Positions 2,481-60,721 are shown, counted from the stretch's first letter. The stretch: 64,000 nucleotides of DNA from an uncultured Acidimicrobiia bacterium (GCA_963812375.1 CAWEUW010000007.1:225856-289855), one strand, 5' to 3'. Notes: generated by a model not told the origin, from the letters alone. Translations and numbers: made by a program.

Positions 2481-3390
2481 CTACCGGTCCTCGCAGCCGA
2501 CCTCGCCGGGGAGCAGCGGGCGGGGCAGGAGCTGGATCTCCTCGGTGCCGGTGTCCCAGACGGTCGCCTGGGTGGCGTCGCCGAAGACCTCGGCGGCCGC
2601 CGCCGCGTCGGGGCCCTCGAGGATGGTGCAGGGGAGCCCGAAGCTGGTGTGCTCGAAGTCGGCGACGGCGACTTCGAGCGGGTAGGGCCGCACGTCCGGC
2701 GGTAGGCCGGTGTCGCCACCCGGGATGAAGTCGCCGTTCACCACCACCTGCCACCGATCGGAGGAATAGGGCTCGCCTGGTTCTCCCGAGAACGATGCGT
2801 CCTGCAGGGTGAGCATCAGGTCGTTGAGCGCCACCACCTTGGGGTCGCCTGTCTCTGCTTCCGGGTTGAACCCGAGGGCGTACACGCCGTACCGGTGGGT
2901 GCCGTTCTCGTCGAAGTAGGTGAGCACCGTCGTCGAGGCATCGGCCACGTTGCCCGCCGCCTGGTCGTCGATCTCCTCAGTGATGTCGGCGATGCCGATC
3001 CGGTCGAGGATCTCCTGAAGGTCGGGAAGCAGGTCGGCGACGTCCTTGGCCTCATAGGGGGGGACCAGCGGGCCCGGGAAGATCTCGGGTATGGCACCCT
3101 GATAGATGAGCTGGCCGTCGGTGGTCACCGTCGTAAGCAGGCCCCAGCGAGGCGAGCAGGGTCGGGGTCGAGAAACCCCCCTCGTACGTGATCATGAACA
3201 GCGGCTGGCCGGCATCGCCTCCGGCGCCGGACGTGGTGGGGTCGGGAGGGGCAGTCGTGCCGCCGCCATCGGTAGCGCCGCCGTCGTCTGAGCCGCTTGC
3301 GACGTCACCGCCACCACAGGCGGCCGCCACGAGGAGGAGTGCCAGCGATCCGGCGACGAGCCTGAGGGGGGATGTGCGTGCTGATGTCAT
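2481..3390 (-). CDS. hypothetical secreted lipoprotein; reading frame broken around 3050-3130
   Basis: ATG at 3390 gives MTSARTSPLRLVAGSLALLLVAAACGGG (signal peptide + lipobox). The protein continues in another frame as ORF 2481..3128 (GQLIYQGAIPEIFPGPLVPPYEAKD...). Confidence 0.45.
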
Positions 3391-3446: not shown

Positions 3447-4689
3447 TCACCCCTGTCCGAAAGCGCCCCCTCGCCTCACCACCAGGTCGCCGTCGATGTC
3501 TGCCACCCGGCGGCATCCGATGAGCGCCATCGTCCGCTTCATGTCCGAAGCGAGCAGCTGCATGACGTGGTCCACCCCCGCCTCACCGGCGGCGCCGAGA
3601 CCGTAGAGGTAGGCGCGGCCGACCATGCAGGCATCGGCGCCCAGGGCGACCGCCTTGACGACGTCGCTCCCCCGCCGCACCCCGCCGTCGCAGATGATCT
3701 CGACCCGTCCCCCGACGGCATCGGCGACTCGCGGGACCAGGTCGAGGGGTGCCGGCGCCGAGTCGAGCTGCCGGCCCCCGTGGTTGGAGAGGGCGATCGC
3801 CTCCACGCCGTTGTCGGCGGCGATGAACGCATCGGCGACGGTCTGGATCCCCTTGAGGACAATCGGCCCTTTCCACCGTTCCCGGAACCAGGCGACGTCG
3901 TCCCAGGACAGCCCGGGGTCGAACTGCCGGCCCACGTACTCGGCCAGGCTGATGGCCTGCGCCCCGTCGCCGACGCCGAGGCCGGCAACGTTGGCGAACA
4001 AGATGGGATCCGACCGGACGAACCTCCAGGCCCATCCGGGGTGGATCGCCCCGTCGAGCAGCGTGGAGAGCCCCACCTTGGGCGGCAGGGTGAAGCCGCG
4101 CCGCACGTCCCGTTCCCTGCGCCCGAGCACCGCGGTGTCCACGGTGATGCACAGCGCCTCGTAGCCGGCTGCGGCGGCCCGCTCGACCAGCTCGGCGACC
4201 AGCCCCCGGTCGCGCCACACGTACACCTGGAACCAGAGACGATCCGACCCGACGGCGGCCACCTCCTCGATCGAGCGCGTCCCCAACGTCGACAGGGCAT
4301 AGGGCACCCCGGCCCGCGCCGCCGCCCGGGCCACGGCCAGCTCCCCAGGAGGGTCGGCAATGCGGGTGAAGCCGGTCGGGGCGAGCACGACCGGCATCGC
4401 CAGCGGCTTGCCCAGCAGCGTCGAGGAGATATCGACCTCGCCGACATCTCGCAGCACCCGGGGGGCGAACTCGACCTTGCGGAACGCAGCGACGTTCGAG
4501 GCCAGGGTCAACTCGTCCTCTGCTCCCCCGTCGATGTAGTCGAAGACGCCCCGGGGCAGCCGGCGCCGGGCGATCCGCCTCAGGTCGGCGACCGACGCCG
4601 CCCGTCCGCAGCCGGCGCTTCACCGGGTCGAGCTCGAACTTGCGGAGGTCGATCACCCCGAGAGCGCCGAGACGGCTCCGTATGGTCAT
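3447..4689 (-). CDS. FMN-dependent alpha-hydroxy-acid dehydrogenase (L-lactate dehydrogenase / glycolate oxidase family); apparent frameshift near 4570
   Basis: C-terminal 354 aa contain ...VLKGIQTVADA...SNHGGRQLD.... The N-terminus MTIRSRLGALGVIDLRKFELDPVKRRL (frame of ORF 3583..4689) joins the ADLRRIARRRLPRGVFDYIDGGAEDELTL frame after a 1-bp shift. The N-terminal arrangement resembles mycobacterial LldD2. Confidence 0.8.
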
Positions 4690-4924: not shown

Positions 4925-6430
4925 GTGACGTCACCGGAGAGCTCGCCCGGGCCGGTGTTGCGGATCGAGGGGCGTCTCCAAGCGCTTCGACGCCACCCAG
5001 GCGCTCGACGACGTGTCACTCGACCTCTACCCCGGCGAGGTCCACGGCATCGCCGGCGAGAACGGGGCCGGCAAGTCGACGCTGATCAAGATCATGACCG
5101 GCATCCATCCGGCCGACACCGGATCGATGACCATGGCCGGTGAGCCGTACGCCCCGCACAGCTCCGCCGAGGCTCAGCGCCACGGGGTGGCGGCCATCTA
5201 CCAGGAGCCGTCGATCTTCCCCGACCTCAGCGTCGCCGAGAACATCTTCATCGGGCACGAGGACCAGGGCTGGCTGGTCGACTTCGGCACGATGTACGCC
5301 GAGGCGGAGCGCCTCCTCACCGACCTCGACATCACCGTCAACCCCCGGCTGCCGGCGTCGGGCCTCACCGTCGGCGGGCAGCAGGCGGTGGAGATCGCCA
5401 AGGCGATCTCGCTCGACGTGCGGGTGCTGATCATGGACGAGCCGACCGCCTCGCTCTCCGCCCACGAGGTGGAGCGGCTGTTCCGCCAGGTCCGCCGGCT
5501 GCGCCAGTCCGGGGTGGCCGTGGTCTTCATCACCCACCGGCTCGAGGAGCTGTTCGTCATCGCCGACCGCATCTCGGTCTTCCGCGACGGGCGACGCATC
5601 TCGACCCGGTCGACCTCGGAGGTCACCGAGGAGTCGCTGGTCAGGGAGATGGTGGGCCGCGACCCCAGCGACTTCTTCTCCCGGGTCCACCAAGACCCTG
5701 GCGAGGTGCGACTGGAGGTGGACTCGCTGGGACGGGACGGCGTGTTCTCCGACGTCTCCTTCGACCTACGCGGCGGCGAGGTGCTCGGCTTCGCCGGCCT
5801 GGTGGGATCGGGTCGCACCGACATAGGTCTGGCCTTGTTCGGGGTGGCGCCGGCCAGCGAGGGGTCGGTCCGGCTCGACGGCAAGCCGGTGACCATCAAG
5901 TCGCCCCGCCAGGCGCTGGAGTTGGGGATCGCCTACCTCTCCGAGGACCGGCGCAAGCTCGGCCTGTCGATGTCGCAACCGGTCGCCGCCAACATCACCC
6001 TGGCAACCCTCGACCGGTACACCAACGGTCTGGGCCTGCTCGAGCGGGCCAAGGAGCGCGCCGACGCCGACGCCATGGGCAAGCGGCTGGACATCCGGAC
6101 GCCGAGCATGGCGACCCCGGTCGGCCTGCTCTCGGGCGGCAATCAGCAGAAGACGATGCTCGCCAAGTGGCTGAACGCCTCCCCCGGGGTGCTGATCCTC
6201 GACGAGCCCACCCGCGGGATCGACGTCGGCGCCAAGGCGGACGTGCATCGCTTCATCGACGAGCTCGCTCGCTCGGGGATCGCCATCATCCTCATCTCGT
6301 CCGACCTCCCCGAGGTCCTGGCGATGAGCGATCGAGTGGCGGTGCTGCGCGAGGGCCGGCTGCGGGCGATCTTCGACCGGACCGAAGCCACCGAGGAGAC
6401 GGGTCATGACCACCGCGGTGGGGGCCGCAT
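4925..6430 (+). CDS. rhaT: sugar (rhamnose-type) ABC transporter ATP-binding protein with duplicated ATPase domains; two 1-bp frameshifts (~4968, ~6410)
   Basis: Walker [10 protein letters not shown], signature LSGGNQQK and a second ATPase half. The N-terminus [16 protein letters not shown]|[23 protein letters not shown] needs removal of one G in a GGGG run. The C-terminus ...[12 protein letters not shown] is restored by removing one G in acgggtc. The stop overlaps the next ATG (ATGA). Confidence 0.75.
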
Positions 6431-7536
6431 GACCCAGCAGGCAACGACCGAGCGCGGTAGCCATCGCCGGCACCAGCACCTGGCTCCGGCCGGACCGGGT
6501 CAAGGAGCTGACGCTCCTCGGACTGATCGTGGTGGCGGTGCTGGTGTTCTCGCTGCTGGTCGACGACTACCTGAGCGGGCAGTCGTTCGTGAGGATCACC
6601 ACCACGGTGGCGATCGTGGCCATCCTCGCCGTCGCCCAGGGGCTGGTGATCATCAGCCGCAACATCGACCTGTCCGTCGGGTCGATCGTCGGGGTGGCCG
6701 CTTACCTCACCGGCGACTTCCTCGGCGCCTACCAGGGTGCCGGCCCGGTGGTGGCCATCGTGGTGGCGATGGTGGTCGGGGCGATCCTGGGATCGGTCAA
6801 CGGCGCGCTCGTCGCCTACGGAGGGGTGCCGGCGATCATCGTCACCCTGGGCACACTGGCCGGGTTCCGCACCCTGCTCAGCCTCTATTCGGGCGGCGTC
6901 AACATCACCGCCGCCTCGCTCCCCGATTGGGTGCTCGAGTTCTACAACCTCACCGTGTTCAACATCGGGGAGCTGGAGGTGCGCCTGGTATTCGTGATCG
7001 CCGTCGCCGTCGTCCTCGTCCTGCAGTGGATGCTGGGCCGGGTGCGCTGGGGGCGCCGGCTGTACGCCATCGGGTCGAACCCCGAAGCGGCTCACCAGGC
7101 GGGTCTCCCCGCCACGCGTCTGGTGTTCTGGTCGTTCGTCGGCTGCGGCGCCCTCGCCGGGCTGGCCGGCTTCCTGTACATGGCCAGGGTGGGGACGATC
7201 AGCGCCACCGCCGGTGCCGGGCTCGAGCTGGAGTCGGTGGCCGCCGCCGTGGTCGGAGGGGTGAGCATCCTCGGCGGCGCCGGCACCATGGTGGGTGCGC
7301 TCCTGGGGGCGATCCTGCTCGACACGCTCCGCCTCGGACTGTTGCGGGTCCCCGGCGTCAGCGAGTTCTGGCGCGACGCCTTCCTCGGTGTCCTCATCCT
7401 GGCTGCGGTCATCCTCGACGCCGCCCTGCACCGCCGTTTCGCCCGCCGCTGGTCGGCGGAGGCCAGGCGGGCTGCCGAGGACACCGGTACCCCGGTGGTG
7501 GCCGGGATGCACACCCTCGCCGGCGGGGGTGAGTCG
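6427..7536 (+). CDS. rhaP: ABC transporter permease (first of two), frame disrupted at N-terminus
   Basis: Multi-TM permease sequence [60 protein letters not shown].... The ATG overlaps the rhaT stop, but a frame change is needed within the first ~30 codons. No stop codon separates it from the second permease. Confidence 0.55.
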
Positions 7537-8614
7537 ATGGGTGACTGGGCCCGGGCGCATCGGTGGGAGGTCGTGTTGCTGGTGGTGCTGGCCGCCACCA
7601 TCGTGGTCAACGTGGCGCTGTCGCCCTTCTACTGGGGCGGTGGGAACTTCGTCAACCTGTTCTGGCTGTCGGCGGAGAAGATCATCGTCGTCGTCGCCAT
7701 GACCTTCGTCATCATCAACGGCGAGATCGACCTATCGGTGGCGTCGGTGATGGGTTTCAGCGCCGCCGTCCTCGCCTCGCTCCACGCCGGCGGGTCGGTG
7801 CCCTTCTGGCTGGCCATCGTCATCGCCCTGGTCGCCGCCGGGCTCGCCGGGGTGGTGCAGGGACTCGTGATCACCCGGTTTGGGCTGCCGTCGCTGGTGG
7901 TGACCCTGGCCGGGTTGATCGGGTTCCGGGGTGCCGCCCGGGTCCTCCTCGAAGACCGTTCGGTCGGCGAGTTCCCCGAGTGGTTCGACAGCCTAGGACA
8001 GCAGACGCTGGTGGGCCCGCTCCCCGTAGCGTTGGTGATCTTCGTGGTCGGGCTGGCGGTTGCCTGGATCACCCTCGGCCGAGGTGCATTCGGGCGCAAG
8101 GTCTACGTCAGCGGGGCCGGCGCCGACGTCGCCCGCTACTCCGGGCATCGACGTCTCCTGGCTCAAGCTCCGCCTCTTCATCATCTCCTCGCTGGCCGCC
8201 GGGCTGGCCGGGATCCTCTTCGCCGCCCGGCTCGGGTCGGTGCGGGGCAGCCTGGGCGAGTTCTTCGAGCTGGACATCATCACCATGGTCCTGCTCGGCG
8301 GGGTGAGCATCTTCGGCGGGTCGGGGACGATGCTCGGGGTGGCCCTGGCCATCTTCATCGTGCTCAACATCCGCAACGGCCTCGGACTGGCCAACGTCGA
8401 CGGGATCATCCAGACCGGTGTCATCGGTCTGCTCCTGATCGGGTCGGTGTTGGTCCCGAATATCGCCAGGCGAGTCCGCGATCGGCGCCCGGCGACGGAC
8501 ACGAACCCGCCGACGATTTCGTCGAGTGAATACCCAACGGAGGTGCCAAGCAACTGCAGATGTGATGTGAAGGAGAGCCGACCGAGAGAAGGAGACATCG
8601 TGCGACAGCGATAG
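7537..8614 (+). CDS. rhaQ: ABC transporter permease (second), frameshift ~8140
   Basis: [25 protein letters not shown]...[13 protein letters not shown]... continues after a 1-bp shift (extra G in tccggg) as [31 protein letters not shown]...[13 protein letters not shown]. Confidence 0.55.
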
Positions 8615-9797
8615 ACGACGCATCCCGGCGCCGTCGCCCTGGTGGTGCTGGCGATGAGTCGTAGCCGCATGTGGCGGTGGATGCGAGCCGACACGACCGA
8701 TCGCGAGGCGAGACACCACCGCTGCGGCGGCCACCACGCGTTGCCGCGGACACCACCGCAGCGGCGGACACCACGGTCGCGGCGGACCACCACGGCGGCG
8801 CCGGGAACCACGGTTGCGGCGGAAACCACCGTCGCTGCTGAAGGGCCGGTGAACATCAGCGGGGCGGATTCCATCACCGGTACGTTCCTTCCCAAGTGCA
8901 CCACCATCCTGTGTTCCCGCAGGCGAACGACGGCGCGGTCGAGGCAGCCGGAGAACTCGGCTCCGAACCCGACCGAATTCTCGGGCCCGCCGACTGCGGC
9001 GACGCGACGGCAGGATCGAGATCATGACCAACGCGGTCACCCAGAGCGTCGAGTCGATCATGGTGTCGAACAACGCGGGTGACAGCTGGCCCCGGCGGCG
9101 GCGGCCGCCGCCGGAGGCCGGCATCCCCGTGGTGAGCTGGGACTCGCCGATCCCATCGGCAGAGGGCGAGGCGTGTTCATCGCCCAGGTCGACTTCGACG
9201 GGACCGGCCAGGTGATGGCCGAGATGGCGCTCAGCATCCTGGGGGACGACGGTGGGCAGATGGCCATCCTGTCGGCGACCCCCGAGGCAGCGAACCAGAA
9301 CATCTGGATCGCCGCCATGGAGGAAGCTCTACCGATCCCGCAGTACGCCAACCTCGAGCTGGTCGACACCGTCTACGGCAACGACGTCCCGAGGACAGCC
9401 AGATCGCCGCAGCGGAGGCTCGCCGACGACACCCCGACCTGGAGCTGATCATGGCGCCGACGACCGTCGGCATCGTGGCGGCCGCCCAGGCGATGACCAA
9501 GCCGATGGATGTGAGCAGGTGAAGGTCTCCGGCCTGGGACTCCCCGACGAGATGGCGGAGTACGTCGAGAGCGGGTGCTCGCCGGAGTTCGCCTTGTGGA
9601 GCTTCGTCGACCTCGGCTACCTGGCCTACTACGTGGCGTACGGCATCGCCACCGGGCAGATCGAGGCGGCCGAGGGCCAGGCGTTCGTGGCCGGCCGGAT
9701 GGGTGAGTACGAGATCACCGCCGACCCGACCCGTGACGCCGGGCTGCGCGTGCTGATGGGCCCGTTCACCGTCTACAACGCCGACAACATCGGCTGA
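8591..9797 (+). pseudogene. rhaS: rhamnose ABC transporter substrate-binding lipoprotein, at least 6 frameshifts / one in-frame stop
   Basis: SD aaggaga + GTG 8591. Lipoprotein-signal fragments AVALVVLAMS / VVAACGGG. Then, spread over three frames: [242 protein letters not shown]. These match RhaS-type (TIGR02637-like) binding proteins. Confidence 0.65.
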
Positions 9798-9814
9798 TCG
9801 GCTGCCAGGGCCAT

Positions 9815-9841
9815 CCGGGCCGGGCCTTGCGCCCGGCCCGG
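9815..9841 (+). terminator. GC-rich hairpin (11-bp stem CCGGGCCGGGC/GCCCGGCCCGG, 5-nt loop) downstream of rhaS
   Basis: Perfect inverted repeat ccgggccgggc cttgc gcccggcccgg lies 18 bp after the rhaS stop. No U-tract, as is common in high-GC actinobacteria. Confidence 0.4.
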
Positions 9842-9928
9842 GTAGCCGGGCCAACCGCGAACGATCATGAGGATCCTACCATCGATCGCCCATCGGAGCC
9901 GGAGACGCCGGCGACCGGGAGGCGCACG

Positions 9929-12018
9929 ATGAGCGCATCGGAGACACCGGACGTGGTCGTCGAGCTGCTGGAGCGCTCCAACCGTCTCGGCGCCGACCGG
10001 CGCAACACCAACTACGGCGGGGGTAACACCTCGGCCAAGGGCGACGGCGACCGACCCGGTCTCCGGCGACGAGGTCGACGTCATGTGGGTGAAGGGCTCC
10101 GGAGGCGACCTGGGCACGCATCGGCCGCGGCGGCCTGGCCGCGCTCCGGCTCGACCGGGTGCGGGCGCTGCGGCACCGGTCTACCGGGGCGTCGACCACG
10201 AGGACGAGATGCATCAGTTGCTCGACTACTGCGGCTTCGGGCCGCCCGGGGCGGCGCCCAGCATCGACACTGTCCATGCACGGGCTGCTCGACACCGCAT
10301 CACGTCGACCATCTCCACCCCGACTCGGTGATCGCCCTGGCGGCGGCCGCGGACGGTGAGGAGCTGACCAAGCAGTGCTTCGGCGACGAGGTCGCCTGGG
10401 TGCCGTGGCGTCGACCCGGCTTCGAGCTGGCCCTCGAGATCGACGCGCTGCGCGACGTACCAGCCCGACCTGCAGCGGCGTGGTCCTGGGCGGTCACGGG
10501 TCTGACGACCTGGGGCGAGACCTCCGAGGCGTGCGAGGAGAACGACGCTCGGGATCATCCACCGAGCCAGCCGAGTTCATGGGGACACGAAGGCCGCCCC
10601 GATCCGTCTCGGGACCGGTCCGCGCCGGCTTCGAGCCGCTTGCCGCCCGAGGAGCGACGGCGGCACGCCGCCAGCTCGGCGCCGGTGCATCCGCGGCATG
10701 GCGGCACCGAAGTCCGCCGTCGTCGGCCGTTGGTTCGCAGGACGATCTCGTGCTCGACTTCATCGGCGCGGGAGGCGGCGCCGCGGGTGGTGCCGCTGGG
10801 CACCTCGTGCCCCGACCACTTCATCCGCACCAAGGTGCGCCCGCTGCTGCTCGACCTGCCGCCGACCGCGCCGATCGACGCAGCAGATCGACCGGCTCCG
10901 TGAGCTGCACGCCGAGTACCGCGACCGAGTACGAGGCGTACTACCGGCGCCATGCCGACGAGACGACCCCGCCCATGCGAGGGGCCGACCCGGCGATCTT
11001 CCTCATCCCCGGCGTGGGGATGTTCAGCTTCGGTGCCGACTCGGCCACCGCCCGCATCGCCGGCGAGTTCTACATCAACGCCATCAACGTCATCCGAGGG
11101 GCCGAGTCGGTCTCCACCTACGCCCGGTGCCCGAGGCGGAGAAGTTCCGTGTCGAGTACTGGATGCTGGAGGAGATGAAGCTGCGGCGGCGCCCGGCGCC
11201 CAAGCCGCTGACCGGCAAGGTGGCGCTGGTCACCGGCGGCGGCTCGGGCATCGGGCGGGCCATCGCCCACGGGCTGCGGGCCGCCGGTGCGGTCGTGGTG
11301 GCGATCGATCGCAACCTGAGGCGGCGCAGGCAGACCGCCACCGAGATCGGCTCGGCGGACGACGCCGATGGCCGTCGAGGCGGATGTCACCGACGAGGAA
11401 GCGGTCGGGGCGCCGTCGAACGCGGCGACGCTCCGCGTACGGCGGCATCGACATCGTGATCAACAACGCCGGTTTGTCGCTGTCGAAGGGCCTTCTGGAG
11501 ACCACCGAGGACGACTGGGACCTCCAGCACGACGTGATGGCCAAGGGGTCGTTCCTCGTGTCCAAGCACGCCGCGGCGGCGATGATCGCCCAGGGTACGG
11601 GTGGCGACATCATCTACGTGGTGAGCAAGAACGCCGTGGTCGCCGGGCCCAACAACCTCGCCTACGGGTCGGCCAAGGCGAGCCAGGCCCATCAGGTCCG
11701 GCTGCTCGCCGCCGAGCTCGGCGAGCACGGGATCCGGGTGAACGGGATCAACCCCGACGGGGTGGTCCAGGGCTCGGGGATCTTCGCCGGGGGTTGGGGG
11801 GCCGACCGGGCCAAGGTGTACGGGGTTCCCGAGGAGGAGCTCGGCGCGCTTCTACGCCGACCGCACCCTGCTCAAGCAGGAAGTCTGCCCGAGCACGTCG
11901 CCGACGCCGCGCTCGCCCTGGTCGGCGGGCGTCGCTCGGCCAGACCACAGGGCTGATCATCCCGGTGGACAGCGGCGTCGCTGCGGCATTCCTCACGGTC
12001 CGAGGAGGCGTCCCATGA
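9929..12018 (+). pseudogene. rhaD: bifunctional rhamnulose-1-phosphate aldolase / short-chain alcohol dehydrogenase, many frameshifts
   Basis: GGGAGG SD + ATG 9929. Fragments across three frames: MSASETPDVVVELLERSNRLGADRRNTNYGGGNTSAKG, VMWVKGSGGDLGT, LDRVRAL, VDHEDEMHQLLDYCGFGPPGAAPSIDT, VDHLHPDSVIALAAAADGEELTKQCFGDEVAWVPWRRPGFELALEIDAL, TSEACEEN. Later FRVEYWMLEEMKLRRRPAPKPLTGKVALVTGGGSGIGRAIAHGL (SDR Rossmann) and ...NAGLSLSKGLLETTEDDWDLQHDVMAKGSFLVSKHAAAAMIAQGTGGDIIYVVSKNAVVAGPNNLAYGSAKASQAHQVRLLAAELGEHGIRVNGINPDGV. The stop overlaps the rhaI ATG. Confidence 0.7.
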
Positions 12019-13275
12019 TCGATCCGGGACGCATCGCCGAACTGAACGCAGCGCATCGAGGCGACGCTCTCGCGCGCGACGTCGGGCACCTCGCCGATGA
12101 GCCTCGACCGCGGCGGGTCCGGTGACCGCCGAGCGCGTCGATCGATGCGCTTGGCGAGTTCTCGGTGGCGGCTCCGTCGTGGGCGGTCGGCACCGGTGGC
12201 ACCCGGTTCGGGCGATTCCCCGGCGGGCGGCGAGCCGCGCACCACCGAGGAGAAGATCGACGACGTGGCCGCGCTCGACGCGCTCACCGCCGAGCAACCG
12301 GGCGATCTCGCTCCACGTCCCCTGGGACGACCCCGAGCCGATCCCGACGGGCTCCGCCAATACGCCGAGGAGCGGTCGATCGGGTTCGACGCGATGAACT
12401 CGAACACCTTCCAGGACAACCCGTCCACCACCGGCGACGGCGCCCTCTCGTACAAGTTCGGCAGCCTGGCCAACGCCGACCCGGCGGTGCGGGAGGTCGG
12501 CGGTCGAGCACAACCGACACGTGATCGACCTCGGGCGTGCGACTCGGGTCGGAGGCGCTCACGGTGTGGCTGGCCGACGGGATCAACCATCCCGGGCAGG
12601 CCGATCACCGCACCCAGTTCGAGCGGGTCGCCGACGGGCTCGCAGGCGATCCACGACCATCTCCCCGACGGACTGGCAGATGTACACCGAGCACAAGCCG
12701 TACGAGCCCGCCTTCTACGCCACGGTCAACCACGACTGGGGGTCGTCGCTGCTGCTGGCGCAGGCGGCCGGTGCCAAGGGCGTCTTGCCTCGTCGACCTC
12801 GGGCACCACCTCCCCAACGCCAACATCGAGCAGATCGTCAGCCGGCTCGCCATGGTCGGCCGGCTCGGCGGGTTCCACTTCAACGACTCCAAGTACGGCG
12901 ACGACGACCTCACCACCGGGTCGATCAGGCCGTTCCAGCTCTTCCTGATCTTCTGCGAGCTGATCCGGGCCGGGGAGGGGCGGCTGCCCGGCGCTCGCCT
13001 ACATGATCGACCAGAGCCACAACATCAAGGACCCGCTCGAGGACCTCATCCAGTCGACCGAGGCGGTGGTCATCGCCTACGCCCAGGCGATGCTGGTCGA
13101 CCGGGCCGCGCTGGCCGAGGCCCAGGAGGACAACGACGCCGCCCGGGCCCAGGAGGTCCTCCAGGATGCGTTCCGAACCGACGTCCGCCCGCTGGTCGCC
13201 GAGGCGCGCCGGCGCGCAGGGGGCGCCATCGCCCCGCTCCAGGCCTACCGGGCCGTGGGCTACCGCCGGCGATGA
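12015..13275 (+). pseudogene. rhaI: L-rhamnose isomerase (actinobacterial RhaI type), multiple frameshifts
   Basis: Fragments PSWAVGTGGTRFGRFPG, EEKIDDVAALDALT, IGFDAMNSNTFQDNPSTTGDGALSYKFGSLANADPAVREVGG, LTVWLADGINHPGQADHRTQFERVADGLA, NANIEQIVSRLAMVGRLGGFHFNDSKYGDDDLTTGSIRPFQLFLIFCELIRAGEG, MIDQSHNIKDPLEDLIQSTEAVVIAYAQAMLVDRAALAEAQEDNDAARAQEVLQDAFRTDVRPLVAEARRRAGGAIAPLQAYRAVGYRRR* are spread over three frames. Confidence 0.7.
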
Positions 13276-13312
13276 TCGAGGAGCGCGGGCTGGCATCGGT
13301 GGCGACCGGGCT

Positions 13313-14711
13313 GTGACCGACGCCGGCCGGGTCCTCGCCGTCGATCTCGGGGCGACCTCGGTGCGGGTCGCCGCCGTCGATCTCGCCGCCGACCAGCCGG
13401 CGGTCGAGGTGGTGCACCGCTGGCCGCACACGCCGCGTCGCGGGTCCGGATGGGGCGCTGCGCTGGCGACTGGGACCGGATCGTCGCCGAGGTGGAGGAC
13501 GGGCTCGAGAGCGGCGATGGCGAGTCGGGTCCGGTGGCGTCGATCGGAGTCGACGGCTGGGGGGTCGACTACGGGCTGCTCGACGCCGACCGGAAGCTGG
13601 TGGCGCCGCCCTTCTCGTACCGCGATCCGCGGACCGCCGGATGGGGCCGGACCGCCGACGCCATCGGGCCGAGCGGCTCTATCGAGATCACCGGCATCCA
13701 GATGATGGGGATCAACACCATCTTCCAGCTCGCCGCCCATGACCGAGGCCGAGCTGGAGCGGGCCGACCGGCTGCTCCTCCTCCCCGACCTCCTCGTCGC
13801 ATCATCTCACCGGCTTCGAGGGAGCCGAGGCGGTCGAACGCATCCACCACCGGCCTGCTCGACGCCGCAGCCGGCGCATGGTCAACCGAGCTGGTCGACC
13901 GCTCTGTCGCTGCCACCGACGCTGCTCCCGGAGGTCGTCGCCGCCGGGCCGGCCGTCGGCACCTGGCGGGGTGTCCCGGTGCACCTCGTCGGCAGCCACG
14001 ACACCGCCTCGGCGTTCCTCGGCATGCCCGGTGGCAGGGAGCCCGGGACCGTCTTCGTGTCCGCCGGTACCTGGGTGATCGTCGGCGTCGAGCGACCCGC
14101 CGCCGACACGTCGCCGGCGGCCCGGGCGGCCAACTTCTCCAACGAAGCCGGCGCCCTCGGAGGCGTCCGGTTCCTGAGGAACGTGATGGGGTTCTGGATG
14201 CTGGAGCGGTGCCGGTCCGCCTGGGGCGACCCCACCGATCGAGGAACTGGTGGAGGAGGCGACAATGGTCGACGAGCCGGTGCCCGAGTTCGACGCCGGC
14301 GACGACCGCTTCCTCTCCCCTGCCGACATGGAGAGCGAGATCAGGATCCGCCGCCGGGCTCGGCGACGACGCACCCCGGCCCGTGGTCGTCCGCTCCGTG
14401 CTCCAGTCGATCGCCGCCGGCACCGCCGGCGTGGTCGACGACCTGACCGCGGTGACCGGCGAAGCACCGCGGCGGCTGGCTCTCGTCGGCGGCGGCGCCC
14501 GGGTCGGGCTGCTCCGGGACCTCCTCGCCGAGCGGACCGGGCTCGAGGTCATCGCCGGCTCGACCGAGGCGACCGCCCTGGGCAATGCCGTGGTCCAGGG
14601 CATCGCCCTCGGCCGGTTCGACGGGCTGCCGGCCGCCCGGACCGTGGCTGGAGCCCACCGGAAGGCCGGCCATGAACGGACAAACGGCCCCGCCGAGGCG
14701 GTGTCATGGCT
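13313..14711 (+). pseudogene. rhaB: rhamnulokinase (FGGY family), multiple frameshifts
   Basis: GTG 13313 VTDAGRVLAVDLGATSVRVAAVDLAADQPAVEVVHRWPHTP. Later VASIGVDGWGVDYGLLDADRKLVAPPFSYRDPRTA, EITGIQMMGINTIFQLAAHD and the C-terminus VVRSVLQSIAAGTAGVVDDLTAVTGEAPRRLALVGGGARVGLLRDLLAERTGLEVIAGSTEATALGNAVVQGIALG lie in different frames. The end is approximate. Confidence 0.65.
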
Positions 14712-15465
14712 GACCGCGTGTTCCACAGCCCCGAGGAGCGCCTCACCGAGGTCCGCAACCTGATCGCCGGGCGCGGTGCCGTCCGCATCGACGAGCTGGC
14801 CCGCGACTTCGGGGTGAGCGAGATGACCATCCGGCGCGACCTGGACGAGCTGGAGGCGCTGGGGCTCGCCCGCCGAGTACGCGGTGGCGCCATCGCCGTC
14901 GGGCCCGAGCCGTTCGCCCAGCGGCACCGGCACAACGCCAGGGCCAAGGTGCGCATCGCCGAGAAGCTGCTCCCGCTGATCCCGGTGAGCGGGACGGTGG
15001 CGTTCGACGCCTCGACCACCGTCTACCGCCTCGCCGCCTCGTTGGAGACCGCCCGCGACCTGGTCGTGGTCACCAACGGGCTCGACTCGTTCCACTCGCT
15101 GATCGCCAAGCCGGGGATCACCGCAACGCTGACCGGGGGATCGCAGGAGCCCCGTACCGGGAGCCTGGTCGGGCCGATGGCGGTGCGGGCCGCCCAGGGG
15201 TTCCTCTATGACGCTCTGGTGTGCTCGGCGGCCGCGCTCGACGCCGACGCTGGGGTCATCGGAGGCGAGCCTGGCGGAGTCGGAGGTGAAGCGCGCCTTC
15301 AGCGCCGGCAGCGCCCGCATCATCCTGGCCGTCGACCACAGCAAGCTGGGGACGAGGGCCCCGGCCCGCATGTTCGAGCTCGAAGCCGTCGACCACCTCG
15401 TCACCGACCTCGACCCGGACGACCGGCGCCTCGACGCCTACCGATCGGCGGTGAGGCTCATCTGA
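14706..15465 (+). CDS. rhaR: DeoR-family transcriptional regulator of the rhamnose locus; one frameshift ~15270
   Basis: MADRVFHSPEERLTEVRNLIAGRGAVRIDELARDFGVSEMTIRRDLDELEALGLARRVRGGA (DeoR HTH) plus sugar-binding DeoR_C region. The C-terminus ...EASLAESEVKRAFSAGSARIILAVDHSKLGTRAPARMFELEAVDHLVTDLDPDDRRLDAYRSAVRLI* is in frame +1. Confidence 0.7.
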
Positions 15466-15511
15466 CCCATCGGCCCACCCCCGGGCTCCGCCAGCATCCA
15501 GAAAGGGGAAC

Positions 15512-15845
15512 CGTGAACCGCATCGGGTTCGTGCTCAAGGTGAAACAGGACCTGATCGACGAGTACCGCCGCCGCCACGCCGAGGTCTGGCCGGAGATGC
15601 TCCACGCCCTGTCCGAGTCCGGCTGGCAGAACTACTCGCTCTTCCTGTGCCCCGACGGCACGCTGTTCGGCTATTTCGAGACACCGGGCTCATTCGCCGA
15701 AGCTCTCGACGCCATGGCGAGCCGTGAGGTCAACGACCGCTGGCAACAGGAGATGGCGCCGTTCTTCGAGACCGTCGGGGGCGACACCTCCCAGATGGCC
15801 GACCGGATGATGGGGCAACTCGAAGAGGTGTTCCATCTCGAGTGA
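15512..15845 (+). CDS. rhaM: L-rhamnose mutarotase
   Basis: SD aaagggga + GTG. VNRIGFVLKVKQDLIDEYRRRHAEVWPEMLHALSESGWQNYSLFLCPDGTLFGYFETPGSFAEALDAMASREVNDRWQQEMAPFFE... has typical RhaM length and sequence. It is the only rhamnose-locus gene without a frame break. Confidence 0.8.
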
Positions 15846-15884: not shown

Positions 15885-17295
15885 TCAGGTCACGATGGCG
15901 CCGGGCAGGGTCACCACGAACCGGGCTCCGCCGCCGGGGGTGTTGGAGGCGGTAACGGTGCCACCGTGGGCGGCGACGATCGCCTGGACGATCGCCAGCC
16001 CCAGGCCGCTGCCCCCCGATCGGCGGGAGCGCGACCGGTCGGCCCGGTAGAACCGTTCGAAGACGTGGGGCAGGGCGTCCACCGGGATACCGGGGCCGTC
16101 GTCGGAGACGACGAGTTGCGCCGTTGCCGACGTGGGGTCGGCGTCGACGTCGACCTCGACCTCGGTGCCCGGCGGTGTGTGGACCCTGCACATTGGCCAG
16201 CAGGTTGGCCACCACCTGGTGGAGGCGCTGCGGGTCGGCCACGACGACCGGACGCCGGTCTGCCGGGGCGTGCACGGTCACCGGTCGGGTGGGGTCGGTG
16301 ACCCGATGATCCGCGGCGGCCTCGTTCGGCAAACGGCCACGCAGGTCGACATGGAAACCGGTCGGAGGGGCTCGGTGCGGCCGAGCCGGGCGAGGGTGAG
16401 GAGATCCTGCACCAGGCGACCCATCCGGCCGCTCTCGCTCTCGATCCGGTCCCAGGCCTTGGCTCTCGTCGTCGGTCGACTGCAGGCCGCCGCGTGCGGT
16501 GCAGCTCGGCGTAGCCTGTGATGGTCGCCAGCGGGGTCCGCAGCTCGTGGGAGGCGTCGGCGACGAAGCGGCGCAGCCGCTCCTGGCCCTCTCGCTCGGT
16601 GTCGAACGCCTCCTCGATGTGGACCAGCATCTGGTTGAGAGCGCCACCGAGCCGGCCCAGCTCGGTGTCCTGGTCGAGCGCGGGAACCCGTTGTCCCAGG
16701 TCGCCGGCGGCGATGGCGGTCGCCGTGTCGACCATCTCGTCAACCGGCCGCATCGCCCGTCGCACCGTCCACCAGGTGGCGGCGGCGCCGATGAGCAGGA
16801 TCACGGCCGCCGGCGAGCAGCAGCGTCTGGACCAGCGAGTCGGTAGCAGTGGCGACACCGCCAGCGGAGCGGCGTGGACCAGCACCGAGCCGTCTGCCAG
16901 CGACTCCACGTATCCCCGGTAATCGAGGTCGCCGTCGACGCTGGCGAGGTCGACCATGCCCTCGTCCCCGGCGAGCCCGGAGACGTCGGGGAGCGGGTCG
17001 GGATCGTCGGCGAACCCGGACGGCTTGGCCCAGGCGACAGTCACCGTCGCCGGTCACCGCCACCTCGGCGAACGGCCTGAGGAACGGCTCGTCCTCCGAG
17101 CCGGGGCCGGGCCCGAAGCCGGGGTCGCCGGGGCCTTCCGGCCCGGGGCCCCGGTCGGCGAAGCTGAGCAGGGACTGCTCGGCCTGAGCCACGAGGATCG
17201 ACCTGATCGGAGCGGGAGGCGACCAGGCCAACGGCGGCGATGACCGCCACCAGCAGCAGGGTGAACGAGATGACCAGCTTGGTGCGCAGCGCCAT
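15885..17295 (-). pseudogene. two-component sensor histidine kinase (TM-HAMP-HisKA-HATPase_c), at least 3 frameshifts
   Basis: The ATG at 17295 overlaps the regulator stop (TGATG). [29 protein letters not shown]..., HAMP/HisKA ...RRFVADASHELRTPLATITGYAELH..., and ATPase end ...DDGPGIPVDALPHVFERFYRADRSRSRRSGGSGLGLAIVQAIVAAHGGTVTASNTPGGGARFVVTLP* sit in three different frames. Confidence 0.7.
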
Positions 17296-18002
17296 CAGCC
17301 TGTGGCGCGGCGGACGACGTAGCCGACACGCCCGCACCGTCTGGATGAGCGACCCGTCGTCGTCACCCAGCTTCTTGCGCAGGTAGGAGATGTAGGTCTC
17401 GACCATGCCGTAGTTGCCGTCGAAGTCGTACTCCCAGACGTGGTCGACGATCTGCGCCCTTGGACATCACCTTCCCCGGTTGATGCATCAGGAACCGGAG
17501 CAGCCGGAACTCGGTCGGGCGAGAGCTCGACCTCGCTACCGTCGCGGGTGACCTGGTGGGCGTCCTCGTCGAGGGTCACGTCGCCGACGGTGATCCGGGC
17601 CGACGGTGCTCGTCGCCCTTGCGACCGTCGCAGCAGCGCCTCGATGCGCAGACCCAGCTCCTCGAGGCTGAACGGCTTGGTCAGGTAGTCGTCGCCGCCC
17701 TGGCGGAACCGGTGCGGAGGTCGTCGATGTCGTCGCGGGCGGTGAGGAAGATGACCGGGGTCTGGATGCCGTCGCGGCGGATGCGGCGGCACACCTCGAA
17801 GCCGTCGAGCTCGGGCATGTTGACGTCGAGCACGACCAGGTCGGGCGGGTCCGATCTGGATCCGCCGCAGGGCGTCGTAGCCGTTGCCCTCGGTGTGCGC
17901 CTCGTAGCCGGCGAACCGGAGGGCGCTGGCCACCAGGTCGGCCAGGCCTTCCTCGTCGTCGACGACCAGGATCGAGGCTCGGGGTTCTTGGCGATCGTTC
18001 AT
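17295..18002 (-). CDS. OmpR/PhoB-family response regulator; frameshifts in the receiver domain
   Basis: [48 protein letters not shown].... In a second frame [23 protein letters not shown]. Then [25 protein letters not shown]...[22 protein letters not shown] and C-terminus [36 protein letters not shown] across frames. Confidence 0.7.
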
Positions 18003-18130
18003 CTGCCGAGCAGCGTAGGTCGCCAACCTGGGAGCTCCCTGTGAGCCCGCTGCGGCCCGTGGAGGGGACCATTCTCGCACAGGCCGCGCAGACCATCGAG
18101 TCTGCCGAAGGCCGCCGAGCATCGAAACAG

Positions 18131-18162
18131 GAGACGGGCCCGGATCGCTCCAGGCCCGTCTC
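18131..18162 (-). terminator. stem-loop (10-bp perfect stem GAGACGGGCC/GGCCCGTCTC) downstream of gene 18198..18503 and upstream of the response-regulator gene
   Basis: gagacgggcc cggatcgctcca ggcccgtctc. On the minus strand it is followed by ctgtttcg. A second small hairpin agccggctatgccggct sits immediately after the stop at 18198. Confidence 0.4.
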
Positions 18163-18197
18163 TCCTCCTTGTTGGTCGATAGCCGGCATAGCCGGCT

Positions 18198-18503
18198 TCA
18201 GACGTCGGTGCTGGACTCCTCTCCGGTCGTTCCCTGGTCGTCGGTGCCGTCGTCGGCGCCGTCCCGATCACAGTCAGGGCCACCCGATCGATCTTCCTGA
18301 CCGTCCTGGTCGGTGTCACCCGTGGTGTCGTCGGGGGCGACCGTCGCCTCGGTCGTGTCGCCCGGGGCCTCGACCACCGTGGTCGTCGTGTCCTCCTGGG
18401 CGGGCGCCGCCGCGGTGCCCAACACCGTGGTGACGCCCAGGGCGGTGGCGAGCGCTCCCGCCACCGCCCAGGGCTTCACCGATCGCTTCTTCTCGTCCGG
18501 CAT
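18198..18503 (-). CDS. small secreted acidic Thr/Asp-rich low-complexity protein, hypothetical
   Basis: Strong SD gaggagg 7 nt before ATG 18503. MPDEKKRSVKPWAVAGALATALGVTTVLGTAAAPAQ signal peptide, then EDTTTTVVEAPGDTTEATVAPDDTTGDTDQDGQEDRSGGPDCDRDGADDGTDDQGTTGEESSTDV. Confidence 0.5.
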   Translation of the reverse strand: MPDEKKRSVKPWAVAGALATALGVTTVLGTAAAPAQEDTTTTVVEAPGDTTEATVAPDDTTGDTDQDGQEDRSGGPDCDRDGADDGTDDQGTTGEESSTDV

Positions 18504-18663
18504 CGGGACCTCCTCGTGTAGCGGATGCCTGACCATCAGGATCGGGCGCCCACCTCCGAGAATCCTCACAACCGTCGTACAACTCCATCAGAGGCCGGCC
18601 CGGACGCGCAACGAGCGGGTACCATGAAGGCCCGCTCGTCGGATGCCGGAACTCAGGATCAGG

Positions 18664-19441
18664 TCATCGGGACAGCCACAGCTGCACCTCGAGGACACCG
18701 TGATCCTCCACCGCCAGCACCATCGGTGCGGTGGGGATCGAGACGTCGTAGTCGGCGAAGACGATGTCGGTGGAGCCGACCACCAGGATCATCCCGTCGA
18801 CCAGCTGTGCCTCCAACGGGATCTCGACCTGGTTGGTGACACCGTTGATGGTCAACTCCCCGGTGGCGGTCACCGGTCACGGTCTCACCGTCGGCGGCGG
18901 CTTCGCCGAAGTCGATCGGCTCGGTGAGCACGAAGGTCGCCTCGGGGTTGGCGTCGGTGCCGAGGGCTTCCTGGATACGGCTGTCACGGCGGGACTCGTC
19001 GCTGACGATGGCGGTGAGGTCGACCGTGTAGTCGGCCGACGTCAACGTGGTCCCCTCGATGACCATGCTCCCGGCGACGCCGGGGGTGCGACCGACGGCG
19101 GTGGCGGAACCGATGGTGGCCAGCTCCTCCTCGATGCGGAAGCCGACGAACGTCGCCGTGGTGTTCTCGGTGACCGAGAACTCGCCGACCGAGGTGTCCA
19201 CGGTCCAGGTTCCTTCGATGCCCTCGGCGGTCGCCGCCGGGGCCTCGCCGGCGGAAGTCGGCGACACCGTCACCGCGGCAGCTGTCTCGCCGAGGTCGGC
19301 CTGGTCGGGGGCGTCACCGCTGAAGAACCACACAACCGCGGCCACGGCGGCGGCGATCAGCACACCGCCACCCAGGGCGATCCACCTCCACGGCCGCCGC
19401 CGGGTGGACGTCGGTGCCGGCTCTGTCTCCGTGTCGAGCAT
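18664..19441 (-). CDS. YceI-like (polyisoprenoid-binding) protein with N-terminal TM anchor; frameshift ~18870
   Basis: ...WRWIALGGGVLIAAAVAAVVWFF (TM), TWTVDTSVGEFSVTENTTATFVGFRIEEEL..., then in another frame ATGELTINGVTNQVEIPLEAQLVDGMILVVGSTDIVFADYDVSIPTAPMVLAVEDHGVLEVQLWLSR* (YceI C-terminal beta-barrel). Confidence 0.65.
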
Positions 19442-24952: not shown

Positions 24953-26182
24953 TCACCGGTCGGGGATCGCCGCGTCGACGAACCAGGTGTCGACGACACC
25001 CTTTCCCTTCACCTCGATCTTCCCCCTCGGGATGCACGTGAAGGCGTCGGCGATCAGCCGGTAGGTCGGCTCCGACACCTGGATCCGCCCGGGTTCGCCG
25101 TGCGACTCCATGCGGCTCGCCGTGTTCACCGTGTCGCCCCACACGTCGTACTGGTACTTGCTCCGACCGATCACCCCGGCCACGACCGGACCGGAGCTGA
25201 TCCCGACCCGGAACGCCAGCCCACGGTCCCGGCAGTAGTCCAGGATCTCCAGGCCCATCGCCGCCAGGACCTCGGCATGGTCCGCTCGCGGGACGGGGAC
25301 ACCGGAGGCGACCATGTAGGCGTCGCCGATGGTGCGGATCTTCTCACAGCCGTACTTCTCGGTGAGCTCGTCGAAGTAGCTGAACACCTCGTCGAGCTCG
25401 GCGACCACCTGGTCGGCGGGGATCCGCTCGGAGCGAGCGGTGAACCCGACGGCATCGGCGAACAGCACGCTGATCGACTCGAACCTCCTCGCCTCGGCAC
25501 GCCCGGTCTCCTTCAGTTCGGCGGCCACCTCCTCGGGGAGCAGGTTGAGCAGGAGGCGTTCGTTGCGGTCCCGTTCGAAGGAGAGGCGGCCGAGCAGGTA
25601 CCACACCACCGGGGTGAGCACGAGGATGTTGCCGACCATCACCGCGACGAACATCGTGGAGGTCACCATCTGCTGGGGAGCCGCCCGGCTGGCCGCCAGC
25701 GTCGGCTCCAGGAGCCCCATCGTCACCGCCAGCACGATGTAGACGACGACCACACTCACCGTGAGTCTTCGACCCCACGGCAGCGCGATGAGGACGGTCC
25801 CGGCGATACCCCACATCATCACCGCCCCCGAGTTGGCGAAGCCGCCCAGCGTGATGTGGACGAGGACCTGGTTGGCCATGCTGACGACGAGGCCGATGAC
25901 GCTGGCGGTGAAGACGCTGCCGGTGACGGCGTACCAGGTCCAGGCGACGGCCAGGCCGATCACCAGCAGGACGGTGTCCCACGCGGCGGCGGTCTCACCG
26001 GCGGCGAACAGCCACCCGGCGGTCCCCATCGAGAACATGAACGCCAGCAACAGCGAAAGCGTGAACACGCGTGCCACGGTCATCCGGTTCTCGAACGCGG
26101 TCAGGTACCCGGCCGGCTTCGTGCGGGCGGCGAGGCGATCCCAGAATCCGGCCATCGCGGGATAGGTCGCCACGGCCCGCAA
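24953..26182 (-). CDS. membrane-anchored class III adenylate cyclase (6 TM + CHD catalytic domain)
   Basis: N-terminal hydrophobic helices, then ...SISVLFADAVGFTARSE...IRTIGDAYMVASGVP...YDVWGDTVNTASRMESHGEPGRIQVSE.... Intact 409 aa. Confidence 0.8.
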   Translation of the reverse strand: MRAVATYPAMAGFWDRLAARTKPAGYLTAFENRMTVARVFTLSLLLAFMFSMGTAGWLFAAGETAAAWDTVLLVIGLAVAWTWYAVTGSVFTASVIGLVVSMANQVLVHITLGGFANSGAVMMWGIAGTVLIALPWGRRLTVSVVVVYIVLAVTMGLLEPTLAASRAAPQQMVTSTMFVAVMVGNILVLTPVVWYLLGRLSFERDRNERLLLNLLPEEVAAELKETGRAEARRFESISVLFADAVGFTARSERIPADQVVAELDEVFSYFDELTEKYGCEKIRTIGDAYMVASGVPVPRADHAEVLAAMGLEILDYCRDRGLAFRVGISSGPVVAGVIGRSKYQYDVWGDTVNTASRMESHGEPGRIQVSEPTYRLIADAFTCIPRGKIEVKGKGVVDTWFVDAAIPDR

Positions 26183-26245
26183 GCTAGACGCCCGGCCGGA
26201 CCGTCGCCGGTACCCTCAGGGGCCCGGCGGGCGGACGAGGAGCGC

Positions 26246-31575: not shown

Positions 31576-31806
31576 CGATCCTCCCGAACGTGCTCGCTTC
31601 GCGGTGACAATAACGGCGCGGCCGTCGCCGGGCTCGAACGGATAGCTACGGGAGGTCGTCGGCATACCGCGGCGAGCGGCGATAGGGTCGTTGGGAGCAC
31701 CCGGAGGTCGATCTGGTCCGTGGCCCCGATTGCTCATCGGACGACCGATGAGTCTCGACGGCCGGCGACGTTTTACCTCAGACAGACGATCGAAGGAGAG
31801 GGCGCG

Positions 31807-32200
31807 ATGGACTACAAGCTCGAGATGGTGCTGCTGCCGGTGGCCGACGTCGACCGGGCGAAGGCGTTCTACCAGCAGGCCGGCTTCAACCTCGACGTCG
31901 ACCACCAGCCCAGCGACGAGTTCCGGGTGGTCCAGTTGACCCCGCCGGGCTCGGCCTGCTCGGTCGCCTTCGGCATCGGCATGACCGACGACCGACGCCC
32001 GGCTCCGTCCAGGGGCTCCACCTGGTGGTGACCGACATCGAGACGGCCACGCGACGAGCTGGTCGGGCGCGGCGTCGAGGTGAGCGACGTCCGGCACATG
32101 TCCCCGGAGGGCTGGAAGCCGGGGGCCGACCCGGAGCACGCCCGACTACAACTCGTTCGCCGACTTCGCCGACCCCGACGGCAACAGCTGGGTGCTCCAG
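31807..32200 (+). CDS. VOC/glyoxalase family protein, frameshifted; no stop before the following sigma-factor reading frame
   Basis: ATG 31807 MDYKLEMVLLPVADVDRAKAFYQQAGFNLDVDHQPSDEFRVVQLTPPGSACSVAFGIGMTD. It continues in other frames: ...VQGLHLVVTDIETAT / DELVGRGVEVSDVRHMSPEGWKPGADPEHA / DYNSFADFADPDGNSWVLQEVGYGT.... Confidence 0.55.
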
Positions 32201-32230
32201 GAGGTCGGGTACGGGACGGAGCCGGGCAGC

Positions 32231-33190: not shown

Positions 33191-33199
33191 CCCGGCTCC

Positions 33200-33773
33200 T
33201 GGTCGGGAATCTCGAGCCCCGACGCCGGCGTCAGCCCGCCTCATGGCCGGCGTCGAAGTCGGCGGCGGCTTCGGCGGTGAACGGTGCCCGGTCGACACCG
33301 GCCACGGCCGGCGATCGGATCGAGCACGAACCCGGTGTGATCACCCAGCGGGATCGTCGCCACGATCCTTCCCGCCCACCAGCTGTCGACATCGAGGAGC
33401 ACCGGGGCGCCGCCGGGCCCCGGGACCAGGCGACACCGGCGAACTTGTCCACCTCGTCGCCGGTCTCCTCGCCGAACCACCGGGCGAGGTCGACGTCGCC
33501 GGCGTCGACATGGTGCACCACCATGGTGTCGACCTCGGAGGCCACCTCGAAGGTCCGATTCCGCGTGGACAGGCACACGAGATAGCGGGCAGGCTCGACG
33601 CTGCACCGGGTATGGAAGCCCACCAGACAGCCGGCAGCCTCGCCATCGATCGACGACACCGTGGCGATCACCATCGGGTGACGTGAGCGGTCCGTGATGG
33701 ACTCGAACGGTCCCGGCCCATCGGTCGACCCGGCAATGCGGTGCGCCGGATCGTCGCCGGACTCGATCGACAT
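33200..33773 (-). CDS. flavin reductase-like domain protein (NAD(P)H:flavin oxidoreductase component); frameshift near 33420
   Basis: ...RHPMVIATVSSIDGEAAGCLVGFHTRCSVEPARYLVCLSTRNRTFEVASEVDTMVVHHVDAGDVDLARWFGEETGDEVDKFAGVAW, then in another frame ...GGAPVLLDVDSWWAGRIVATIPLGDHTGFVLDPIAGRG.... Confidence 0.6.
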
Positions 33774-33831
33774 GGCTGCGTCCCTATCCGGTCCTGACGT
33801 CGATGAAACCGCCGCCGGCGGCCGCGTCTGG

Positions 33832-34528: not shown

Positions 34529-34624
34529 TCTCGGAGGAGGCGGACGGCGAGTCCGGGGTTCGAGCCGAATCTACCGGAGCATGCCCGGCCGCGCCCGGCG
34601 GACGGTGCCGATAGCCTGGATCTC

Positions 34625-35658: not shown

Positions 35659-35665
35659 CTGGAAT

Positions 35666-36667: not shown

Positions 36668-36673
36668 CTACGC

Positions 36674-60676: not shown

Positions 60677-60721
60677 CGCCGCAGGAGTACGAAGGAGGCT
60701 TCCCCCCGGTTCGCCACGTTC

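Follow-up and report, generated by a model that had tools for sequence, protein, structure and literature searches.

A RhaEW-type pathway of L-rhamnose utilisation with an lldD extension has been described by Rodionova et al. 2013 (PMC3870299). The bifunctional enzyme RhaEW performs the cleavage to dihydroxyacetone phosphate (DHAP) and oxidises L-lactaldehyde to L-lactate, and lldD lies within the RhaR regulons of some RhaEW-encoding Actinomycetales (PMC3870299). Here, we analysed a stretch of 64,000 nucleotides from an uncultured Acidimicrobiia bacterium (GCA_963812375.1 CAWEUW010000007.1:225856-289855; G+C content ~70%), referred to as the window, in which positions 4925-15845 of the + strand hold a nine-gene rha locus in the order ATPase, two permeases, binding protein, RhaEW, RhaI, RhaB, DeoR regulator and RhaM. 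Almost all of these genes are broken in frame, and an earlier note made from the sequence alone had read the locus, provided that the breaks are real, as a recently inactivated catabolic pathway. Our comparisons point in another direction: with a probability of roughly 0.88, the frame breaks are uncorrected single-base consensus errors in a long-read metagenome contig and not gene decay, and the rha locus is normal.

Genes were placed by tblastn with open reading frames (ORFs) of relatives, by our own frameshift-aware protein-to-DNA aligner and by NCBIfam searches with the frame-corrected products. All three approaches bore out the gene content and order given in the earlier note. The genes of the locus and the adjoining divergent gene are as follows, with +1, +2 and -1 denoting inserted and missing bases.

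3450-4689 (-): flavin mononucleotide (FMN)-dependent L-lactate dehydrogenase-like (LldD-like) gene, divergent from the rha operon; one +1 event near 4602.
4925-6432 (+): rhaT-like ATP-binding cassette (ABC) ATPase, 501 amino acids (aa) after correction; +1 events at 4973 and ~6399-6402.
6429-7544 (+): rhaP-like permease 1, 371 aa; +1 at 6455-6459 and -1 at 7532-7533.
7531-8565 (+): rhaQ-like permease 2, 344 aa; -1 at 7533, +1 at 8141-8146 and -1 at 8538.
8600-9797 (+): rhaS-like periplasmic binding lipoprotein; at least eight frame events in the body, six of them -1.
9929-~12000 (+): rhaEW, bifunctional rhamnulose-1-phosphate aldolase and short-chain (lactaldehyde) dehydrogenase; 23-24 events.
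12015-13316 (+): rhaI, L-rhamnose isomerase of the rhizobial/actinobacterial type; 13 events (eleven +1, one +2, one -1).
13313-~14700 (+): rhaB, rhamnulokinase of the FGGY family; nine events, all +1.
14706-15465 (+): DeoR-family regulator, rhaR-like; one +1 event near 15246.
15513-15845 (+): rhaM, L-rhamnose mutarotase, 110 codons, GTG start; no frame event.

An intact locus with identical gene order is found on a related Acidimicrobiia contig (L082). The translational coupling that the earlier note had described can be read directly in the sequence, as start/stop overlaps are kept between the ATPase and permease 1 (ATGA) and between rhaI and rhaB (GTGA). Like RhaEW-type loci (PMC3870299) and the rhaRSTPQUK/rhaDI genes of Rhizobium leguminosarum, the window encodes an ABC ATPase, a pair of permeases and a binding protein. 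These are joined by a bifunctional aldolase/short-chain dehydrogenase, a rhizobial/actinobacterial-type isomerase, a DeoR regulator and a mutarotase, and, as in some RhaEW-encoding Actinomycetales, an lldD-like gene adjoins the rha genes. The locus differs from these systems in its kinase, which is of the FGGY RhaB type and not the rhizobial RhaK, and in that all rha genes are co-directional, the regulator lies close to the 3' end and the host belongs to the Acidimicrobiia. With RhaEW and a cluster of rhaI, rhaB and rhaM, the locus in the window qualifies as a predicted RhaEW-type L-rhamnose utilisation locus. Judged from homology, a RhaSTPQ-like ABC importer would take up L-rhamnose, which would undergo mutarotation by RhaM, isomerisation to L-rhamnulose by RhaI and phosphorylation by RhaB. 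RhaEW would then yield DHAP and L-lactate, the LldD-like enzyme would convert the lactate to pyruvate, and the DeoR-family regulator is the likely repressor of the operon.

The assignment to a Streptomyces/Mycobacterium-type cluster, made in the same note, holds at the phylum level in that the locus is actinobacterial, but the lineage is that of Acidimicrobiia. Among the matches listed for the repaired ATPase, the best Streptomyces protein is 51% identical, compared with 98% for a Joint Genome Institute (JGI) metagenome protein (P0001, which bears the JGI name 'rhamnose transport system ATP-binding protein') and 70-76% for proteins from Acidimicrobiia-named metagenome-assembled genomes (MAGs). 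In a scan of genome contigs, the best match to the repaired ATPase was 65% identical among the matches listed, and a scan of metagenome contigs with the corrected RhaI returned relatives of at most 84% identity. An erosion of the Streptomyces or beewolf-symbiont type had also been considered and was dropped because Streptomyces homologues are only ~50% identical.

A short-read relative is an Illumina contig from a JGI metagenome (L081), which stems from a population 94-95% identical to that of the window and is syntenic with positions 1-10.5 kb at 94.3% DNA identity. Its covered genes, from a DUF885 gene (P0247 and the DUF885 protein of the window are identical) through the binding protein to the start of rhaEW, are all intact. 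Compared with this contig, the frame-corrected ATPase shows 99% aa identity (ratio of nonsynonymous to synonymous substitution rates, dN/dS, 0.06), permease 1 shows 99% (its L081 orthologue carries Pfam BPD_transp_2) and permease 2 shows 98%. NCBIfam assigned the ATPase to generic sugar ABC models only, below their cut-offs. A missing T at 7533 abolishes the ATG of permease 2. It also puts the end of permease 1 (its last three codons and its stop) out of frame and thereby merges both genes into one ORF of 666 aa (6529-8529). The last 95 codons of the binding protein equal those of L081, and frame-aware alignment of 8743-9794 gave 84% identity. Its signal peptide and Thr/Ala-rich linker (~8600-8900) carry multiple shifts and length changes of +11, +9, +9 and +3, and the protein matches the RhaS model TIGR02637 over positions 3-297 of 302 with 255 bits (cut-off 342). 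RhaEW is 79% identical over its full length to the orthologue in L082, which carries Aldolase_II and adh_short, and 89% identical to that of a long-read assembly (L166). It passes TIGR02632 with 927 bits against a cut-off of 568 (positions 3-675 of 676).

For the downstream genes, identity to L082 amounts to 85% over 428 aa for RhaI, 69% over 443 aa for RhaB, 81% over 251 aa for the DeoR regulator and 70% for RhaM, whose L082 orthologue carries Pfam PF05336. The regulator is also 94% identical to P0249, which carries HTH_DeoR and DeoRC. The best NCBIfam matches of RhaI (TIGR02629, 505 bits), RhaB (TIGR02627 rhamnulokinase, 298 bits) and RhaM (TIGR02625, 68.5 bits, positions 1-102 of 102) are rhamnose-specific and full-length, and all three are under the equivalog cut-offs. 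The LldD-like protein, truncated at its N-terminus by the +1 event, reaches 413 aa and 97% identity to the L081 orthologue after frame-aware alignment. It scores 478 bits with Pfam FMN_dh and 363 bits with the NCBIfam L-lactate dehydrogenase model, slightly under the cut-off of 376. That most products stay below NCBIfam equivalog cut-offs is attributed to lineage divergence.

Frame-aware alignment confirmed that every gene except the mutarotase is broken, as the earlier note had stated, although rhaM has 110 and not 111 codons. Between 2.4 and 15.9 kb we counted 62 frame events (46 +1, five +2 and eleven -1), of which 51 are thus insertions of 1-2 nt. By gene, there are two in the ATPase, two in each permease, at least eight in the binding-protein gene, 23 in rhaEW (17 +1, four +2, two -1), 13 in rhaI, nine in rhaB, one in the regulator gene and none in rhaM. 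The events are randomly spaced; spacing within 9.9-14.7 kb is roughly exponential (mean 105 nt, standard deviation 97 nt), and the bases inserted relative to L166 (G14, C8, A6, T5) follow the base composition. Homopolymers are not enriched at the events compared with random positions, the distribution of longest runs being equal at both. Once the events are skipped, the alignments of RhaEW, RhaI, RhaB and the regulator to intact homologues run from end to end; they contain no stop, lack no residue and have one additional codon at most, and the locus, with 10,921 bp compared with 10,704 bp in the intact L082, shows no net loss. An in-frame stop reported for rhaS did not stand up to this alignment: no true one was found in the aligned body (8743-9794), and the stops near 8560-8660 fall in the shifted signal-peptide/linker stretch. 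Nonsense codons and deletions in RhaEW, RhaI, RhaB and the DeoR regulator, or a loss of length in the locus, which would mark pseudogenes, were not found. The transition/transversion ratio relative to L081 is 0.5-0.95 in intact and broken regions alike and does not discriminate between them. A stretch of 333 bp such as rhaM would be free of events by chance with P = 0.04 at the block-wide density and P = 0.76 at the local density. The earlier note's idea of a size-dependent survival of rhaM agrees with these values, but what the gene survived would be noise and not mutation.

Could the extra bases be real and simply be bypassed by the cell? Programmed recoding through +1 frameshifting, transcriptional slippage or RNA editing would also predict perfectly conserved frame-corrected products. 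However, no common motif, slippery sequence or homopolymer was found at the event sites, their positions are conserved in none of the relatives, and sister assemblies of near-identical strains lack these events. We know of no recoding in bacteria that occurs about once per 100 nt across unrelated genes, and we regard the probability of this explanation as next to negligible.

To assess decay, family-invariant columns in the frame-corrected proteins were compared with leave-one-out controls of intact homologues. Only one of 247 such columns is violated in RhaI (controls 1-22), five of 297 in RhaEW (controls 0-13), five of 176 in RhaB (controls 2-28) and two of 109 in the DeoR regulator, and deeper alignments gave no violation at all in RhaI (0 of 87) and RhaB (0 of 54). 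Even three neutral substitutions per indel would be predicted to cause ~17 violations in RhaI and ~24 in RhaEW. The binding protein (20 of 197) is the sole gene outside the range of the intact controls. Values of dN/dS span 0.06-0.31 overall, with 0.06-0.20 for the ATPase and the permeases and 0.20 for RhaEW, whose differences by codon position (53/34/150) are dominated by the third position. The invariant-column test was needed since dN/dS alone would be compatible with neutral change in RhaEW at the level of a few per cent. The frame-corrected rha genes bear the signature of purifying selection, and neither a dN/dS near 1 nor the lost residues of pseudogenes were observed.

These data bear on the proposal that the genes are old pseudogenes undergoing neutral decay in a reductively evolving lineage. 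Frame breaks at up to one per 100 bp fit such a history, as does the nucleotide divergence from L081 and L166, which in 8.5-12.3 kb exceeds that in 4.9-8.5 kb. The extra divergence is, however, mostly synonymous (synonymous rate dS 0.33, dN/dS 0.20) and concentrated at third positions, the invariant residues are kept, and nonsense codons, codon-level deletions and length loss are missing. In addition, the GC content of the broken block (68-74%) equals that of the flanks without any drop, and a relative at 94% DNA identity has its covered genes intact. Taken together, old neutral decay appears extremely unlikely.

Further evidence comes from five sister long-read assemblies (L164, L165, L166, L167 and L083), which belong to one ENA accession series and bear Flye-style contig names. 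Each has frame breaks of its own in the same genes, located at different sites. L166 is nearly clean, with a -1 event in permease 2. L164 is 99.76% identical to L166, yet four single-base insertions break its rhaEW, permease 2 and lactate dehydrogenase-like genes. L165 has +1 events in rhaEW and permease 2, and its 14 kb of clean sequence are followed by a noisy block of 7.7 kb (72 insertion events, 14 deletion events), in which the fragmented genes are those that are intact in L164 and L166. A +1 event lies in rhaB of L167, 13 events are spread over the ATPase, both permeases and the binding protein of L083 (ENA ERZ25039576 contig_45721), and DUF885 is broken into 159 + 432 aa in a further assembly. 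Comparison with the closest relatives, a check that the earlier note had proposed, showed that none of the window's events, including both ATPase insertions, is present in L081 or L166, so that the disruptions are not shared with these relatives. Aligned to L164 and L165, the window shows nearly as many gaps as when aligned to L166, and the frame events that L164 and L165 themselves have in rhaEW and permease 2 are few and sit at different places from one assembly to the next. Private, insertion-biased events in near-identical populations are predicted by consensus error and not by inheritance. The earlier note had also named corrected reads that restore all frames as the result that would speak against decay, and the sequence comparison, used as a proxy for such reads, does restore them.

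Artefactual products of the sister assemblies sit in public protein databases (L083, P0245/P0246) and may mislead annotation. Among them are DUF885 fragments of 159 and 432 aa and the 864-aa 'fused' ATPase-permease P0005. The fusion and the apparent 82% identity of P0005 proved to be frame noise of another assembly; its corrected ATPase is 97% identical to L081.

The noise is not confined to rhamnose genes. A codon-usage Viterbi path over the window revealed frame hopping on both strands in contiguous blocks at 8.1-19.4, 31.8-36.5 and 59.9-61.0 kb, and translations of the unrelated block genes, stitched along this path, give full-length Pfam domains. The affected regions besides the rha locus, together with a broken gene upstream of it, are the following.

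2484-3390 (-): lipoprotein gene, 302 aa; one +1 event.
15888-19381 (-): noisy block continuing past rha, seen by Viterbi and Pfam, with an OmpR-type response regulator and a HAMP/HisKA/HATPase_c sensor kinase (15888-17978, ~12 frame switches) and a YceI-like lipoprotein gene (18201-19381).
31774-36482 (both strands): second noisy block with glyoxalase, extracytoplasmic function (ECF) sigma factor with SnoaL_2, MDMPI_N, flavin reductase, luciferase-like monooxygenase and methyltransferase; ~25 frame switches.
59862-61026 (-): third, short noisy stretch with a metallo-beta-lactamase-fold gene; five switches, stitched Lactamase_B 3-196 of 196.

At the position of 15888-19381, L167 has a single 560-aa ORF without Pfam match, which indicates that the insert is strain-variable. 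Elsewhere in the window long ORFs of 1170, 1135, 818 and 568 aa are intact. A sharp boundary lies at ~8.5 kb: from 4925-8540 to 8743-11994, dS relative to L081 and L166 rises from 0.06-0.10 to 0.33-0.36, and at the same point the density of frame events increases from ~1.4 to 10-20 per kb. In L165, too, raised divergence and frame noise go together in the noisy block. The boundary in the window may mark a consensus that is chimeric or drawn from a minor strain, or else a genuine site of recombination.

Why, then, should the breaks not be taken at face value, as an extremely recent pseudogenisation in which a burst of single-base insertions, with almost no later substitutions, abolished rhamnose use and other functions? 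The breaks do stand in the deposited sequence, several long genes of the window are spared, the block edges roughly match gene or operon edges, and the breaks extend to the lactate dehydrogenase-like gene, which prolongs the pathway. Such a history would, however, need an indel-to-substitution ratio far above 1, given 13 events and one invariant-column violation in RhaI. It would also need an insertion bias of 51:11 free of larger deletions and of any homopolymer link, whereas bacterial pseudogenes are generally known to show the opposite, a deletion bias. Moreover, 23 independent events would have struck one gene that the first had already killed, without leaving a single stop codon. The same contiguous blocks break unrelated genes on both strands, and no event is common to any relative, while the sister assemblies have private events of their own. 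We consider a recent pseudogenisation very unlikely. Slightly less probable still is the specific case that a natural population has blocks of genes in which the extra bases are real and stem from a localised, strongly insertion-biased mutational burst, one that inactivated the rhamnose pathway together with the neighbouring regulators before substitutions could build up. The recent inactivation, niche change or reductive evolution put forward in the earlier note is not supported, given genes that have no stops and keep their residues, insertions that appear mostly random and are private, and damage to unrelated neighbours.

We thus favour uncorrected consensus errors as the explanation of the frame breaks, and the rha locus is complete and most likely functional. 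Seen through these comparisons, the decayed pathway appears not to be a real feature, and what is left would be an ordinary rha operon. Small-indel frameshifts are documented for long-read genome and metagenome assemblies (bioRxiv 10.1101/2021.08.23.457338; PMC12007338; PMC9262707), and in a large Nanopore-only soil MAG catalogue, for which a single Medaka round was used, low-coverage MAGs show signs of error (PMC12313526). In the noisy blocks, the path of the assembler may have followed a more divergent and probably poorly covered haplotype, so that polishing would have had little to work with. The sequencing platform, low coverage or a strain switch as the cause, and the function of the pathway are points that we infer.

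Several observations weigh against this explanation. The artefact is deduced from sequence comparisons and not from reads. The insertion bias without a tie to homopolymers is not the classical residual-error pattern of Nanopore data, although it matches that of the sister assemblies. Clean stretches of many kb adjoin blocks with 10-20 events per kb, and a strong local variation in consensus quality is needed to account for this. Finally, the binding-protein gene is noisier than the others: it matches L081 at 84%, departs from 20 of 197 invariant columns and has mainly -1 events, and some real divergence or damage in this gene is conceivable. Its noise is in part due to mis-framed segments between compensating indels and to the repetitive Thr/Ala-rich linker. 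It is because of the non-textbook indel pattern, the noisier binding protein and the assumed local variation in quality that our confidence in consensus errors is held at ~0.88.

Other features of the window lie outside these questions. A tRNA-Arg(ACG) at 36594-36668, just past the second noisy block, was the only result of Rfam and tRNA scans of the window. An intact gene at 28633-32145 (-) encodes a 1170-aa subtilase (Peptidase_S8) with nine calcium-binding RTX/HemolysinCabind repeats, a large secreted protease. Genes with adenylate/guanylate cyclase domains are intact at 37627-41031 (-) and 24953-26215 (-), and one of the two encodes a 1135-aa cyclase with an AAA_16 domain, as in regulators of the large ATPase type. 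For about 2.3 kb at 40891-43206, the codon-usage model gives little or no sign of coding, and no Rfam family matches there.

In biological terms, the finding is minor, as the rhamnose operon is of a standard kind and its host is a soil-type Acidimicrobiia MAG. Its relevance lies in annotation: taken at face value, the contig would yield dozens of pseudogenes that could be misread as reductive evolution or catabolic loss. The combination of frame-aware alignment, an invariant-residue test with leave-one-out controls and comparison with sister assemblies offers a recipe to tell noise from decay in cases where reads are not at hand. It also comes as a warning, since block-wise error clusters occur in long-read MAGs that enter species-representative genome sets.

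How does the locus relate to known cases of mass gene disruption? Mycobacterium leprae is an example of genuine mass pseudogenisation in a reductive genome, and the window resembles it in that many adjacent genes carry multiple frameshifts. In real decay, all codon positions take up substitutions, nonsense codons and deletions arise and conserved residues are lost, and the window differs from decay of the M. leprae type in all of these respects. From typical long-read indel artefacts the window deviates by its excess of insertions without homopolymer association and by its strongly block-wise errors, which go along with an apparent change to a more divergent haplotype. In its core properties, it nevertheless resembles the artefacts reported with proovframe (bioRxiv 10.1101/2021.08.23.457338), Kastor (PMC12007338) and by Sereika et al. 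2022 (PMC9262707): single-base indels split conserved genes, reference-guided correction restores the frames, and the events are private to each assembly and absent from the short-read contig of a relative.

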